Shown here piece after piece: positions 22,002-41,843 of a stretch of DNA of 45,746 bases. The position numbers and the translations under genes are program-made. Location: the sequence record NC_024789.1, one strand, 5' to 3'. The stretch's first letter is position 1, and the number at the start of each line of letters is the position of its first letter. The notes beneath the pieces were generated by a model that worked only from the letters and a program-made list of their open reading frames with translations, was not told where the DNA came from and did not search any database. The DNA comes from Escherichia phage vB_EcoS_AKS96.

Positions 22002-22232
22002 TGATATACGCGTAACCGATGTAACTCGATGTATACAATCCCATACGCGGAAAATTGTATACGCTTTTTACGCGAAGATACGCATTATTTACACTATAGA
22101 ATCCTTATATAATAAGGGTTTAGAGTAATTATTATTATTACTATATTTGTTTGTATATAGTGTAACTACTCTCTATAGCTATGTTGGTGTGTTTTTCTAA
22201 AAGACTATGTTTGATTTCCTGTTAAGGAGGAA

Positions 22233-29507: not shown

Positions 29508-29981
29508 TTACTCTTTAGCTTTTCGTGCTTCTTCTCTTTCTTTCTTAACCTTTCGCCATGATTTACGCTGCGGCTTGGTTGCTAACTCAGCTTCTGTAAC
29601 AACTCGAAGCATCTGACGCTTCTTGCATCGCAGTGTTAGAGGCTTGCCGTTACCGTCGAACTGTAAATCAGGTCGGCAGAATGTAGCCCTGAACCCCTCG
29701 CCAGTTCGCTTATATCGATTATGCGCAAGCTGTGCGCCGCGAGCTGAAATCATTCCCCGCTTACACCATTCTTCTACAGCCTGGCGCGTAACCTTTAGCT
29801 GCTTAGCTAGATTGGCCTTGCTGCCGTAGAAGTCCAATACAATCTCAAGGCGCGCCCTTAATCCTGCTCTCACTTCATCCTTTAGTACATAGTAACCTGA
29901 TGGACGCTTACGCGGCTTCTTGTCTTCTGTGCGAATTGTTCCGTTGTTACCATTAAGAGTACGCTTGTCAATTGAATCCAT
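29508..29981 (-). CDS. basic DNA-binding protein with HTH-like segment
   Basis: 157 aa, Lys/Arg-rich; LAKQLKVTRQAVEEWCKRG helix-turn-helix-like. Confidence 0.35.
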   Translation of the reverse strand: MDSIDKRTLNGNNGTIRTEDKKPRKRPSGYYVLKDEVRAGLRARLEIVLDFYGSKANLAKQLKVTRQAVEEWCKRGMISARGAQLAHNRYKRTGEGFRATFCRPDLQFDGNGKPLTLRCKKRQMLRVVTEAELATKPQRKSWRKVKKEREEARKAKE

Positions 29982-33510: not shown

Positions 33511-33764
33511 ATTTACCTGGTCTAGATTTTGCTGAGAGTAAGTATCAGGTTGTGTTTTTTGGTGAGAAGCCTTATCGGAAGATTCCTTTCTCTGAGTGGA
33601 TTCCTCCGGACTACCTCGATGTACTGGTGCAAATTGAGATTGGTAAAGCTGAGTTGATGTACTATTCGCCAGGTTGCAATATGATGATGCCTAGTGAGTA
33701 TTCACCAGCAATTTCTGCTCTAGAAACTGAGTTTCTTGATTACTGGCTAAAAGAAGTAAAATAG
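33507..33764 (+). CDS. hypothetical protein
   Basis: 85 aa, ATGA overlap, stop is the TAG of the next box. Confidence 0.4.
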   Translation: MNLPGLDFAESKYQVVFFGEKPYRKIPFSEWIPPDYLDVLVQIEIGKAELMYYSPGCNMMMPSEYSPAISALETEFLDYWLKEVK

Positions 33765-37793: not shown

Positions 37794-39377
37794 TTACCCC
37801 AACAGCCGTGGATTGATATATACCTTGTCACCAATCAGGCAGGTATAGTTTTTATCATCAAGCATCGGCAGTAAGTGGTCTTTAATTTTAGCCATAACAC
37901 CAGCCTGTGACTCGAAAGGTCGAACCTTACGCGCAGCTTCATAAAGTGAACGCAAACCCACAACTCCTTTACTGTTCTTGCCTTGCTTGATAAGGATATC
38001 AATTAACTTGTTCATCTCAGCGTTATCGCCAGCATGACCAGCTGCGTTAGCTGAGGATAAGTAAGTCTTACTAAGTTCTCCAAACATCAACAAAGCCTCT
38101 TGCATGGTTTCCAGTTCAATCTCCCTGGACTTCTGCGGACTACCGCCATTTGGGTTAAACCAGTTACGGATAGTGTGAAGAACTGCAGCAATGCGAATTA
38201 CCTGTTTATCCATTTTACCTAACGCGCCGCGCAGCATTGTGTGTGAATACTTACCGCCATCTGCAAGGTGTGGCTCCATTTCCTGTCGAGCACGGTTAAG
38301 GTGCTTCATTGCTGAGTTACTAATAGTCAACTTCACATCTTGCTCACTCATAATTTCATGAACAAGACGGAAGTAATCAGCCTTCAACGCTCCGTCAATC
38401 GGCTCATATGTTGACTCGCCATTATCATCGACGAAAACACGCTCACCAAGGAATGACTTTTCACGCACAAGCAAGAAACGTTCGGATACACCAATACCGC
38501 GAGCACCAGCATTCATGATTGCGACTATTGTTTCATCCTGCGCAATTACAGAAATACACCCCATAGCAATAAAGCTCATGTTGTTCTCTGCGTTCGCACG
38601 CGCGATAGATACGTTACCAGCATCCCAGGCCTTAAGTACCAGTTCGCTGTTTGTTTTCTTTGTTCCATCACCATAGGTCATGCCCAGCAGTGAGTTGACG
38701 CTCGTCGCCTCATCCGAGATGACAGCGAAGCTACCCTGACGATGGTTAATGCGTGCCAGACCTTCAGGAGTAGTATCAGATACAGGGAATACGATGTCGC
38801 AAAGTTTCTCGAGCTTATCTTCCAGCTCCTCCTTCTCCTCAAACAAACCAGCCATCTCAGAAGGCGACTTCTCCTGCTTCATTTCTTTAGCCAGAGCCGA
38901 CAGCTTGGCCATAATCTTTTTACGGTCACGCTTACGCAGATCGTTTAGTCGCTCAGTCTCTGCAATCATTGGAGCCAGAGACAGCGAGTTAATGGCAGAT
39001 TTACCAGTTGATGGAGGCTGGCTGGTCACTACATACAGTGATGTTGGTTGTTGAGTTCCGTGATACTCAACCGTAAAGCGACCTAACATAGCTGCCGAGA
39101 TGCAACCAAGGAAGTGCATATAAGCAGATGATTCAGGAAACTGAACAGAACGAGCAATGTTGCTTGATAGTTTGCCAACTACATCATAGTCGTTACCAAG
39201 CGAGATAACAGGATACTTGTCGCCAGTAGAATCAATCTCAACCGGAGCTTTCCAGAATGATGCGCTCTGGCGATAACCGTTCGCATTAATAGCAACACGT
39301 AAAGGAGGTAACCCATCCTGAGCGGCAACAGCCATTACTTGTTCAACAGTCAATTTGTCATCATTAAAATCAAACAT
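37794..39377 (-). CDS. large hypothetical protein with possible deviant P-loop; paralog of 42634-43176
   Basis: 527 aa from MFDFNDDKL; termini match the 180-aa paralog; candidate Walker A SQPPSTGKS and Walker B FAVISDE. Confidence 0.5.
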   Translation of the reverse strand: MFDFNDDKLTVEQVMAVAAQDGLPPLRVAINANGYRQSASFWKAPVEIDSTGDKYPVISLGNDYDVVGKLSSNIARSVQFPESSAYMHFLGCISAAMLGRFTVEYHGTQQPTSLYVVTSQPPSTGKSAINSLSLAPMIAETERLNDLRKRDRKKIMAKLSALAKEMKQEKSPSEMAGLFEEKEELEDKLEKLCDIVFPVSDTTPEGLARINHRQGSFAVISDEATSVNSLLGMTYGDGTKKTNSELVLKAWDAGNVSIARANAENNMSFIAMGCISVIAQDETIVAIMNAGARGIGVSERFLLVREKSFLGERVFVDDNGESTYEPIDGALKADYFRLVHEIMSEQDVKLTISNSAMKHLNRARQEMEPHLADGGKYSHTMLRGALGKMDKQVIRIAAVLHTIRNWFNPNGGSPQKSREIELETMQEALLMFGELSKTYLSSANAAGHAGDNAEMNKLIDILIKQGKNSKGVVGLRSLYEAARKVRPFESQAGVMAKIKDHLLPMLDDKNYTCLIGDKVYINPRLLG

Positions 39378-39417
39378 TATCATCTCTCTCTAAATGCCCC
39401 CGAAGGGGCTTGACTAT

Positions 39418-39597
39418 TTACTTGATACGAACTTCAATCATCTGACCTTTATGAGGAAGATACAGCTTTGCGCGACCTCTAATCATTACGGTGATGATAT
39501 TCTCCTTAAGGTCAACGTGAAGTACTTTGCGGAACAGCGGCCCCATTTTTACCATCATGCCAGGTTTGATGTTTTCGATAGTAGTCATGATATCCAT
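39418..39597 (-). CDS. hypothetical small protein
   Basis: 59-aa ORF after cassette copy j. Confidence 0.3.
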   Translation of the reverse strand: MDIMTTIENIKPGMMVKMGPLFRKVLHVDLKENIITVMIRGRAKLYLPHKGQMIEVRIK

Positions 39598-39635
39598 TTT
39601 TTAGCCCTTTTAATGTATTTCGTTTCGATGAAGAG

Positions 39636-39681
39636 AATATATCAATTTTTGTTGTTAAGTTCTTTAGCAAAAAGTGCTATT
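39636..39681 (-). promoter_or_regulatory. conserved box-plus-minus-10 cassette (copy j)
   Basis: minus strand AATAGCACTTTTTGCTAAA, 23 bp, TATATT. Confidence 0.5.
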
Positions 39682-39796
39682 AAAGACCAACCAGACATTT
39701 GCCAACTACAACAGCGATTGCGCCCATGAAGCCAAAGAAACCAAACTTAATTACTTGTTCCATTACCGCATCAACTGCTTTAGAGATGTTTTTCAT
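39680..39796 (-). CDS. hypothetical small hydrophobic protein
   Basis: 38 aa from ATG 39796 (aaggtg RBS), hydrophobic C-terminus FGFFGFMGAIAVVV. Confidence 0.3.
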   Translation of the reverse strand: MKNISKAVDAVMEQVIKFGFFGFMGAIAVVVGKCLVGL

Positions 39797-39833
39797 TTTG
39801 TTCACCTTAGTTTTTGTCTTCTTGATGGAAACA

Positions 39834-39879
39834 AATATACCCGCCGAAGCGGGTACTGTCATTAGCAAAAAGTGCTATT
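39834..39879 (-). promoter_or_regulatory. conserved box-plus-minus-10 cassette (copy k)
   Basis: minus strand AATAGCACTTTTTGCTAA, 23 bp, TATATT. Confidence 0.45.
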
Positions 39880-40084
39880 TTTTTAAGTGCCCTGGCGCAT
39901 AGCATTTTCCATCCTTCTTATGCAAAACCCACCCAGCATATTTAAGTTGCCTTGCACAATCAGAAAAGTTCTCGCCCGCAGCGTCCGTATAGTGTGGCAT
40001 AAAATAAGAACCATCATCATTTGACTCAGTTGAGCACTTCTTACAGTCGCAATAAACAGCGATGGAATAACCTGAAACAATCAT
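39875..40084 (-). CDS. Cys-rich hypothetical protein
   Basis: 69 aa with CDCKKC and further Cys; ggagg RBS; ATGA coupling to upstream gene. Confidence 0.4.
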   Translation of the reverse strand: MIVSGYSIAVYCDCKKCSTESNDDGSYFMPHYTDAAGENFSDCARQLKYAGWVLHKKDGKCYAPGHLKK

Positions 40085-40434
40085 TTGTAAGCCTCCTCAA
40101 ACTTATACATCCCATAACCCACATCAAAGCCAACTTCTTCATCACGCGTCAACTGCCAGCCCTCGCCGTCTTCATCATAAATATACCCAGCGTTACGACC
40201 AAGTGATGCAGTCATTGATACCTGGTAACGCTTACCCTTACTGAAACTCTTCTTGAGTGGTGACTTGTGGTTCACGAAAGTGCAAAGCAAAGTCTTGGTC
40301 TTGACGTAACGACCCCGGCCGGTGAGATTTTGCCATTTACCATGAATCTTGATTTGCTCAATACCATCTTTAACGCGAGCTTTAAACAGATTGTTATCTG
40401 AGCTGATCCAGTTTTTAGTGATAGTGGTAGCCAT
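40081..40434 (-). CDS. hypothetical protein
   Basis: 117 aa, aaagga RBS. Confidence 0.4.
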   Translation of the reverse strand: MATTITKNWISSDNNLFKARVKDGIEQIKIHGKWQNLTGRGRYVKTKTLLCTFVNHKSPLKKSFSKGKRYQVSMTASLGRNAGYIYDEDGEGWQLTRDEEVGFDVGYGMYKFEEAYK

Positions 40435-40459
40435 TACTATTTTCCTTTTTGGTTTTTTA

Positions 40460-40762
40460 TTAGTTAGCGTTATGACGTTCGATATAGTCGCGGATTGTTT
40501 CGCCTACGCTTTTAGCGGCACCAAAAGTGCCCTTTGCGTGGCGTGAATCGCGGTACGTCTGGAAGAATTTACGAGCGATGTTTGCGAACATTGAACCAGT
40601 CACGCGAGCATCACCGAAATTTGTTTCGATAGCGTTGCTAATGCCATCCTTGAACTCATTTTCAGTCATGAACATCTCTGCCATGCCAGCAGTCTCGAAA
40701 AGGTTAGCTAATTCATTCATGTTGTTATGGTCTTCGGCTGTAAACAGGTTCATGTTAATCAT
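40460..40762 (-). CDS. hypothetical protein
   Basis: 100 aa downstream of cassette copy l. Confidence 0.4.
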   Translation of the reverse strand: MINMNLFTAEDHNNMNELANLFETAGMAEMFMTENEFKDGISNAIETNFGDARVTGSMFANIARKFFQTYRDSRHAKGTFGAAKSVGETIRDYIERHNAN

Positions 40763-40796
40763 CTTCGTGATTCCTTAGTTTCGTTTCGATGAGATG

Positions 40797-40841
40797 AATA
40801 TACAATAAAAGCCCCGAAGGGCTTTAGCAATTCGTGCTATT
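40797..40841 (-). promoter_or_regulatory. conserved box-plus-minus-10 cassette (copy l)
   Basis: minus strand AATAGCACGAATTGCTAAA, 22 bp, TATATT. Confidence 0.5.
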
Positions 40842-40989
40842 TCTTTGCTGCTTTTGCAATTGCCTTCTGGACGATGTTGAAGCTCTCAATCAAATCTTCT
40901 TTGAAGTAGTCACCAACAGGCCAACCCTTACCGCTGTACTTGGCTATGGTTTCTAGATCGTAATAGTTCAAGTCAGATGGCTTTAGCAT
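40837..40989 (-). CDS. hypothetical small protein
   Basis: 50-aa ORF, start adjacent to upstream stop, own stop is the TAG of box l. Confidence 0.3.
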   Translation of the reverse strand: MLKPSDLNYYDLETIAKYSGKGWPVGDYFKEDLIESFNIVQKAIAKAAKK

Positions 40990-41229
40990 TTACTTAACCT
41001 CATCAAAAGTTGCAACACCAGGGATAAACATTCCAACCTTCCAGCCAGAGATAGCAATCCAGCCGGAATCGTGCTTGTGAGGTCGCTCAGCGCCATTAAT
41101 AACCCACTCGTTAGGGATTGTTTTACCATTAATGATTAGAGGCTCAGCGTCGTATACGGAGCCTTTTATGAATGGTGTTAATACATTCTTATCCGCGCTT
41201 TGGATAACGTTGGTGCAGCGAATCTTCAT
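40990..41229 (-). CDS. hypothetical protein
   Basis: 79 aa. Confidence 0.4.
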   Translation of the reverse strand: MKIRCTNVIQSADKNVLTPFIKGSVYDAEPLIINGKTIPNEWVINGAERPHKHDSGWIAISGWKVGMFIPGVATFDEVK

Positions 41230-41444
41230 GCTACCACCTCAATTTCTTCATTACTAACAACAAACTGTTCACCTTGAAAGATTGCAAGAGTACCATCAAC
41301 ATATACATGATCCTTTAAACTCATCATGTAGAAGCCTTCAATCTCGTAAACTTCCACCTCCTCACCAATCTGATAGCCAAGTTCGGCAAGGCTCATTGAA
41401 TCTTCGTCGTACCTAATTTCGTTGTTGATAATAATCGCTTTCAT
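41226..41444 (-). CDS. hypothetical acidic protein
   Basis: 72 aa, first gene after cassette copy m. Confidence 0.4.
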   Translation of the reverse strand: MKAIIINNEIRYDEDSMSLAELGYQIGEEVEVYEIEGFYMMSLKDHVYVDGTLAIFQGEQFVVSNEEIEVVA

Positions 41445-41472
41445 GTTTCTTCTCCTCTCTGTTGATTAGCAA

Positions 41473-41518
41473 ACTATAGCCAGTCATGGTGGATTTGTCT
41501 TTAGCAAAAAGTGCTATT
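41473..41518 (-). promoter_or_regulatory. conserved box-plus-minus-10 cassette (copy m)
   Basis: minus strand AATAGCACTTTTTGCTAAA, 23 bp, TATAGT. Confidence 0.5.
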
Positions 41519-41529
41519 CGTCAGATTTA

Positions 41530-41650: not shown

Positions 41651-41820
41651 AAAGGAAGGGCGTATCAACTAGTTGGTTGGTTTTAGCTTTCACAAGGAGC
41701 TTTCCTTTATGTACGCGTTATGGCTTGTTCAACCGTGTAGAGAAATTGCCATATTTACGCCATCCACGCCAGTTTACGCGCTGGTTACAAAATAAATCCC
41801 TTATATAACAACCCTTTAGA

Positions 41821-41843
41821 TTTATTATTATTATTATTATTAT
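41821..41843. repeat. (TTA)n microsatellite in AT-rich intergenic region
   Basis: about 7 TTA units; shorter counterpart at 22129-22140. Confidence 0.7.

Follow-up and report, generated by a model that had tools for sequence, protein, structure and literature searches.

In 2010 Arbiol et al. reportedly described PeSL (promoter-early stem-loop) cassettes in the hyperplastic regions of T4-type phages; the hallmarks of these elements are a strong sigma-70 promoter, a stem-loop terminator and the shuffling of genes by recombination between cassettes. In phage TLS, a repeat of 21 nt occurs in 21 copies that are co-oriented with transcription and precede start codons by about 76 nt; it has also been noted in T1, Rtp and Rogue1, and the TLS authors leave its role between a stoperator, an enhancer site and an UP-like element (PMC11447400). 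A further comparison is offered by gene 54 of phage Bas11, whose 66-aa product, Gp54, is of unknown function, non-essential in the laboratory and a protein that activates the CapRel-SJ46 defence directly (PMC11578894). Here we analyse a minus-strand block of eight small genes (g1 to g8, 39418-41444) in Escherichia phage vB_EcoS_AKS96 (NC_024789.1; the window is the whole stretch of 45,746 nt), among which lie cassettes whose cores match the 21-nt direct repeat consensus of the Drexlerviridae, aaATAGCACnnnTTGnTAAAA. The explanation that we consider likely is that of a cassette-led, pre-replicative block of accessory and conserved small genes. It would constitute the promoter-proximal part of a leftward pre-replicative gene cluster that runs into the gene for a DUF3987 helicase, and it would be organized not as one operon but as four modules (g1-g2-g3; g4-g5-g6; g7; g8 with the helicase gene), each headed by one cassette. 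In the order of putative transcription, the features are:

41445-41519, minus strand: cassette m, with its core ATAGCACTTTTTGCTAAAG at 41499-41519, followed by the leader and ribosome-binding site (RBS) of g1
41226-41444, minus strand: g1, 72 aa, strongly acidic, with a pI of 4.05 and a net charge of about -13
40990-41229, minus strand: g2, 79 aa
40837-40989, minus strand: g3, 50 aa, with the TAG of the cassette l core as its stop codon
40763-40842, minus strand: cassette l, with its core at 40822-40842, -10 TATATT at 40797-40802 and leader CATCGAAACGA
40460-40762, minus strand: g4, 100 aa
40081-40434, minus strand: g5, 117 aa, basic (pI 9.5)
39875-40084, minus strand: g6, 69 aa, with five Cys
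39797-39880, minus strand: cassette k, with its core at 39860-39880, -35-like ATGACA at 39857-39862 and -10 TATATT at 39834-39839
39680-39796, minus strand: g7, 38 aa when read from its ATG, with a single hydrophobic helix and the RBS AAGGTG
39598-39682, minus strand: cassette j, with its core at 39662-39682, -10 TATATT at 39636-39641 preceded by TGa, and leader CATCGAAACGA
39418-39597, minus strand: g8, 59 aa, basic (pI 10.2)
39396-39409, minus strand: GC hairpin GCCCC-TTCG-GGGGC between g8 and the helicase gene, without a T-run
37794-39383, minus strand: the gene downstream of the last module, for a 529-aa DUF3987 helicase-like protein

The 2.5 kb surrounding the block are 98% identical to Escherichia phage AHP42 and 92-97% identical to phages AHS24, Rogue1, e4/1c, C119 and JK06, all of them virulent, T1-like members of the genus Rogunavirus in the family Drexlerviridae. 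The AHP42 record is collinear with the whole window, beginning at the small terminase gene, and the region 39418-41444 corresponds to its gp55-gp62, each annotated as 'hypothetical protein'. The block is made up of annotated hypothetical genes of a published phage lineage and an already reported repeat, and is ordinary for the early region of a virulent phage. GC skew is negative across 37-42 kb, which fits transcription of the minus strand.

The cassettes have a constant anatomy. Where chance alone would give 0.9 occurrences of the core motif in the window, there are 14, and the four local cores differ from TAGCACTTTTTGCTAA at 0-3 positions. All 16 copies aligned from the window are co-oriented with the downstream open reading frame (ORF), and in every one a -10-like hexamer lies at a distance of 37-39 nt from the A of ATAGCAC, reading TATAGT or TATATT in most cases; in cassette m, for instance, TATAGT (41473-41478) follows the weak -35 AAGACA (41496-41501). 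A CATCGAAACGA-like motif comes directly after the -10 in most of these copies, and a start codon follows the core at 60-85 nt in 15 of them (the script assigned none to the copy at 33761), with g1, g4, g7 and g8 lying 73, 78, 82 and 83 nt downstream of their respective cassettes. The repeat itself spans positions of about -50 to -33, with a palindrome, TAGCA-N5-TGCTA, centred near -43. The TTGCTA within the repeat was considered as a -35 and ruled out: its spacing from the -10 is 22-23 nt in all copies, more than sigma-70 can bridge. Consensus, co-orientation, intergenic position and the existence of three centre classes (TTT, GAA and AAA) are all shared with the TLS repeat, and so, roughly, is the distance to the start codon, at 60-85 nt here and about 76 nt in TLS. 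The published description, however, is restricted to the 21 nt, whereas here these form the upstream part of a longer unit that comprises the -10, the leader in most copies and, in some, an embedded terminator hairpin. We propose that this unit is a promoter for the host RNA polymerase, which would consist of the ATAGCAC-N5-GCTAAA element (about -50 to -33), a -35 of little strength, a good -10, TATAGT or TATATT, at constant spacing and, usually, a CATCGAAACGA-like transcript start.

Experimental data that bear on this proposal come from Bas11 (MZ501085), where the motif is found in 23 copies, against 0.27 expected, five of them in the block syntenic to the one studied here. Gene 54 of Bas11 belongs to this leftward block, which here too is located upstream of the helicase gene, and a cassette (ATAGCACTTTTTGTTAAA, 20 nt, TATCAT) stands immediately before it. 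The primer used for cloning Bas11 gp54 with its native promoter is listed in the supplement of the published study (PMC11578894); this primer, TZ-58, places the start of the 'native promoter' (39981-40056, minus strand) exactly at the TAGCAC of the cassette. The native-promoter fragment led to production of Gp54-FLAG in uninfected E. coli, and two escape mutations located just upstream of gene 54 lowered its expression (PMC11578894), so that this work unknowingly tested one such repeat as a promoter. The case for the Bas11 cassette being a host-polymerase promoter is good, though not vector-controlled. For the local cassettes the case is indirect, and the -10 at a fixed offset together with the Bas11 fragment points to promoter activity. 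A complete promoter unit of fixed geometry, combined with the Bas11 plasmid experiment, would tidy the picture of early transcription in T1-like phages.

The same core might instead be the operator of a dimeric regulator that recognizes TAGCA-N5-TGCTA near -43 and switches all cassette modules together, either as a class-II-type activator or as a 'stoperator'-type repressor; the regulator could be of host origin or encoded by the phage, as would be the case for the helix-turn-helix (HTH) protein at 29508-29981. We consider this alternative possible but less likely than not. The GC-containing core is strongly conserved, its half-sites are palindromic and its fixed position overlaps the weak -35; the sole annotated regulator gene, moreover, is conserved in AHP42 and Bas11. 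Both an enhancer-binding and a stoperator reading are listed as possible by the TLS authors (PMC11447400). Nonetheless, expression from the Bas11 cassette in uninfected cells indicates that a phage activator is not strictly required, deviations from the palindrome are frequent in the right half-site (TGTTA, AGCTA, AATCA), and a location at -50 to -33 with a T- or A-rich centre also fits an UP-like element contacted by the alpha subunit of RNA polymerase. The protein encoded at 29508-29981 (minus strand) is 157 aa long and has what looks, by eye alone, like an HTH stretch. Its counterpart in AHP42 is gp36; no other gene in the records of AHP42 and Bas11 bears the annotation of a transcriptional regulator. 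The protein is conserved in Bas11 and is a candidate binder of the palindrome.

A promoter at the head of each module would also change how the block as a whole is to be understood. An earlier note on this DNA, made from the sequence alone, had described an operon of eight small minus-strand genes (38 to 117 aa) with four internal cassettes and overlapping stop and start codons. The eight ORFs are present at the coordinates it gave. The cassettes exist as well, and l, k and j do lie among the genes; m (41499-41519) is located upstream of g1, beyond the range given for the operon. Overlaps (ATGA) exist only at g1/g2 and g5/g6; g2 and g3 abut (TAAATG) and the remaining junctions have gaps of 25-82 nt, three of which contain a cassette. 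Two of the four local cassettes, l and k, include a terminator-like GC hairpin (40808-40825 and 39837-39856, respectively) that sits between the -35 and -10 positions and is followed by a T-run or T-rich tract. The segment with the hairpin of cassette l folds at -13.2 kcal/mol (z -2.3), and that of cassette k, which is 58 nt long, at -18.7 kcal/mol (z -3.7). A hairpin and T-run between -35 and -10 would attenuate read-through from the upstream module precisely where the next one begins. Since each cassette is promoter-like and two bear hairpins, a single operon with internal cassettes appears too simple a description, and four transcription modules are suggested in its place, the timing of expression and the terminator function of the hairpins being inferred. 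The hairpin at 39396-39409, ahead of the helicase gene, is itself preceded by a truncated cassette-like sequence, ATAGTCAAG. As a further observation, the TAG in the ATAGCAC core is the stop codon of g3 (40837-40842) and of g6 (39875-39880), and that at g7 comes directly after the TAA stop, which means that the cassettes abut the preceding coding sequence without a spacer.

Comparison against seven sister genomes, through counts of substitutions and the ratio of non-synonymous to synonymous differences (pN/pS), together with the occurrence of homologues in other phages, supports seven of the eight ORFs as genes. The pN/pS ratio is 0.09-0.28 for g2 and 0.07-0.77 for g5 (0.27-0.37 in the three well-diverged comparisons); the differences in g8 within the genus are all synonymous, as are those in g3 save for one replacement in JK06, and g4 shows 4.5 synonymous versus 1.5 non-synonymous differences. 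All genes other than g7 have protein-level homologues in other phages at 30-80% identity. Their frequency varies widely: g1 is rare (13 phage records, 42-99% identity) and g4 is found in 26 records only, as opposed to 140 for g2 (identity down to 33%), 131 for g3, 426 for g6, 175 for g8 (including Klebsiella Drexlerviridae at 44-48% identity) and 824, across the Drexlerviridae, for g5. The weakest gene call is g7, which is identical in all 19 records that contain it, so that conservation provides no test of it, and which rests on its own cassette, a good RBS and its hydrophobic helix.

It could accordingly be argued that some of the ORFs, and g7 above all, are chance ORFs in the spacer between promoter cassettes. 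In favour of this stand the short length of g7, squeezed between cassettes 198 nt apart, the lack of any selection signal in 19 identical records, and the fact that some annotations start it at a TTG, yielding a 62-aa version that reads through the cassette. We deem the idea quite improbable, because g7 has its own cassette, AAGGTG at 7 nt from its ATG and a clean hydrophobic helix, and because for each of the other seven ORFs there is either a homologue that has diverged or a sign of purifying selection. A 111-aa ORF on the plus strand (39394-39729), antisense to g8 and g7, is an annotated gene in JK06 (JK_51) and in UDF157lw; it is probably spurious, since g8 on the opposite strand changes only synonymously.

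Searches of Pfam, NCBIfam and PADLOC returned no family match for any of g1-g8, and all eight match PHROGs of unknown function, in agreement with the initial impression that none bears a recognisable catalytic motif. Sequence searches of the PDB (g1, g2, g4, g6 and g8, plus a g5 profile; g3 and g7 lay outside the search) produced only noise. The labels 'DUF2693' for g5 and 'chemotaxis protein' for g4, both from UDF157lw, were not reproduced by Pfam at E <= 1.

Gene content within the block differs among close relatives, and the variation affects three slots. The g6 slot, whose right boundary is a cassette (39879/80), is occupied by g6 in AHP42, AHS24 and UDF157lw as it is in the window; e4/1c has nothing there, the stop codon of g5 abutting ATAGCAC, and in C119 (1483-1677, minus strand) it is filled by an unrelated, unannotated 64-aa ORF (MNETVRIYITKDSIYCKS...) with an ATGA overlap with the g5 stop. 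JK06 and phiJLA23 show the same non-homologous interval (1480-1719) at this slot. Both of these phages also lack g4, with one boundary in the leader of cassette l (40779). Other genes take the place of g1 in AHS24, C119 and UDF157lw, and one limit of that replacement, 41451, falls within cassette m. Thus, g1, g4 and g6, and perhaps g7, behave as exchangeable accessory genes, whereas at least g5 behaves as a conserved family gene. A related observation is that the segment 40460-40989, which holds g4 and g3, shows 100% DNA identity in C119, AHS24 and UDF157lw, amid neighbours that reach only 79% (g5) and 85% (g2), the identities seen in C119; this suggests a recent exchange of the segment.

These data show the block to be mosaic and fit an exchange of modules in which the cassettes serve as one conserved anchor. 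Pressed further, they could mean that the cassettes are chiefly recombination anchors for swapping small genes, in the manner of PeSL, and that the block is a gene-shuffling hot spot. All three variable slots are bounded on one side by a position in or at a cassette (39879/80, 40779 and 41451), different contents flank the same cassette in e4/1c and C119, identity shifts sharply from gene to gene, and a promoter and a stem-loop are joined in two of the cassettes. On their other side, however, the slots end at gene junctions, and the intergenic DNA consists mostly of cassettes, which makes the evidence for recombination weak: about three of six breakpoints fall in about 16% of the sequence. The comparison, moreover, extends to seven genomes only, and neither a cassette-to-cassette deletion nor a mini-circle was observed among them. 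We therefore regard a primary role in recombination as rather doubtful. The likeness to PeSL is that of repeated promoter units, some with a stem-loop terminator, interspersed with small non-essential genes of varying content; here, though, the sequence and the phage family are different, the -35 is weak and accompanied by a conserved upstream element, and only two of the four local copies have a stem-loop.

Among the accessory genes, g6 merits separate consideration. The earlier note singled out its five Cys residues, which are indeed present, and suggested that the protein may bind zinc. In an alignment of 96 family members C12 and C14 are invariant, and conservation reaches 90% or more at C17, H66, G51-W52 and A63-P64; C43 and C61, by contrast, vary, which makes a Cys3His site (C12, C14, C17, H66) more likely than one that involves all five cysteines. 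The residue pattern thus suggests that g6 binds zinc through a CxCxxC...H site. Its AlphaFold2 (AF2) model has a pLDDT of 82, and a fold search with it recognized no known fold in the PDB; g6 has no Pfam match either, and it is not a member of any described zinc-finger family or fold among those tested. The family is nonetheless large. A single-sequence search of a set of 5.8 billion proteins gave one match, an alignment of seven sequences (taken from phage tblastn matches) gave 139 when used as the query, and a profile search of 1.84 billion representatives collected 1,139 members at E <= 0.001. The 150 best matches are mostly stand-alone proteins of about 60-80 aa, and the few longer ones among them carry no fused Pfam domain that might hint at function. 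One metagenomic protein of 134 aa, P0156, is a tandem duplication of the g6 domain (two stretches, E 1.6e-56), a hint that the domain might work as a dimer.

The distribution of g6 reaches well beyond the Drexlerviridae. Homologues at 30-45% identity occur in the Ackermannviridae, always after a dCMP deaminase gene and a membrane-protein gene, and others (31-36% identity) belong to the accessory regions, exo-xis or nin, that Stx and Klebsiella lambdoid phages carry. In these regions the g6 homologue is found among other small, non-essential, early-expressed genes, but the phages are temperate and their regulatory layout is different. The exo-xis proteins Ea8.5, Orf63, Orf73/TraR and Ea22 show no sequence or fold match to g6, and the paper that modelled exo-xis proteins does not cover the g6 homologue. 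A bolder interpretation would make the g6 family a new zinc-stabilised fold and a portable counter-defence or host-modulating module that has spread horizontally among enterobacterial phages, both virulent and temperate; it would also see in the cassettes a siphovirus counterpart of PeSL that supplies both expression signals and recombination anchors by which such genes move. We judge this unlikely. The family, for its part, is represented in the Drexlerviridae, the Ackermannviridae and lambdoid prophages.

A second lead concerns g5 and its relationship to Gp54. The orthologue of g5 in Bas11 is bas11_0048 (42% identity), not gene 54, yet structure prediction and fold search, the course proposed at the outset for each protein, returned a Gp54-like fold for g5: its predicted model is a six-stranded small beta-barrel that resembles Gp54 (PDB 9AXB). 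The topology of this barrel is very rare according to the authors of the Gp54 study (PMC11578894). Gene 54 resembles the local genes in its position, a syntenic block that runs leftward towards the same helicase gene, in having a cassette of the same kind, and in a product that is small and of unknown function. On the other hand, Gp54 has no sequence similarity to any of g1-g8, and g5 is nearly twice as long. When g1-g8 were compared by blastp with Bas11 genes 45-55, none matched gene 54 significantly, the PDB sequences yielded nothing to a g5 profile, and no Rogunavirus appears among the 25 Gp54 matches listed, out of 215 records. As candidates for a sequence homologue of Gp54, g8 and g2 were ruled out by PDB sequence searches and blastp. 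On the predicted model, then, the resemblance between g5 and Gp54 is one of fold and neighbourhood, not of family membership, and any case for g5 as a trigger of CapRel-SJ46 would draw on likeness to Gp54 in fold only. Even close homologues of Gp54, from Bas5, Bas8, Bas10 and SECphi27, do not activate CapRel-SJ46 (PMC11578894).

What the block might do for the phage can be approached from these comparisons. Its products would be small non-enzymatic binding proteins. Both g5 and g8 are conserved in much of the family and basic, which makes a nucleic-acid- or replication-associated role probable for them, and g1, g4, g6 and perhaps g7 would most likely act, as exchangeable accessory genes, on host proteins or defences, g6 by means of a small alpha/beta domain that a single Cys3His zinc site would hold together. 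In Bas11, mutants that have lost gene 54 and its neighbours through large deletions are viable (PMC11578894). Variable gene content, this dispensability of the Bas11 block and the presence of g6 in the accessory regions of unrelated phages make plausible, if in part by analogy, the host-takeover or anti-defence role that was initially proposed for the block, as far as the accessory genes are concerned.

The small proteins could also be conceived as accessories of the DUF3987 helicase in replication or DNA metabolism (loaders, or partners that bind DNA or single-stranded DNA), with no action on the host. The block is co-oriented with the helicase gene and lies directly upstream of it, an arrangement conserved in Bas11, and two of its genes, g5 and g8, pair a wide distribution (824 Drexlerviridae records and 175 records) with a basic pI (9.5 and 10.2). 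As an account of the whole block we find this somewhat unlikely, given that g1, g4 and g6 are dispensable in sister phages, that g6 exists in unrelated phages without this helicase, that Bas11 tolerates large deletions within the syntenic block and that the modules carry putative promoters of their own.

Several points weigh against the cassette-led block of accessory and conserved genes that we favour. The -35 hexamers (AAGACA, ATGACA, AAAGCC and AAGAAC) are poor, with 3-5 of six positions matched, so that the promoters may need a factor, and the pBR322 experiment with the Bas11 cassette leaves read-through from vector promoters possible. One of the four modules is built on g7, a gene without evolutionary support. 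No match to a known anti-defence or host-takeover protein was found for g1-g8 in Pfam, NCBIfam or PHROGs, or for g1, g2, g4, g5, g6 and g8 in PDB sequences, a result to be read with the fact that PADLOC covers defence rather than anti-defence proteins and that no dedicated anti-defence library was searched. The g5 family and Gp54 are linked by fold only, with an hhalign probability of 0.4% and nothing from blastp. Finally, the wide conservation of g5 (824 records) and g8 (175), which look like family genes, argues against a purely accessory block.

Our literature search for Drexlerviridae transcript maps or anti-defence genes yielded nothing specific to g1-g8, and the RAZR paper deals with genes other than these. 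The practical value of the analysis lies in a short list for experiments, drawn from a block whose syntenic counterpart in Bas11 is already the source of one trigger of defence, Gp54. Two modest leads stand out on this list: the g6 family, a large and uncharacterised cysteine-rich family common to three unrelated phage groups, and the fold link between g5 and Gp54, along with the published repeat as a complete promoter unit.

Two minor observations were made in passing. In the syntenic block of Bas11, the gene at 38013-38726 (minus strand), annotated as a 'Dcm-like C5 cytosine methyltransferase', has no Pfam match at E <= 0.001. In the window, a direct repeat of 85 nt, 72% identical between its copies and ending in (TTA)n, is present at 22060-22144 and 41756-41840, one copy in each of two divergent intergenic regions and beside cassette copies in both; it may serve the two regions as a common element, regulatory or origin-like.

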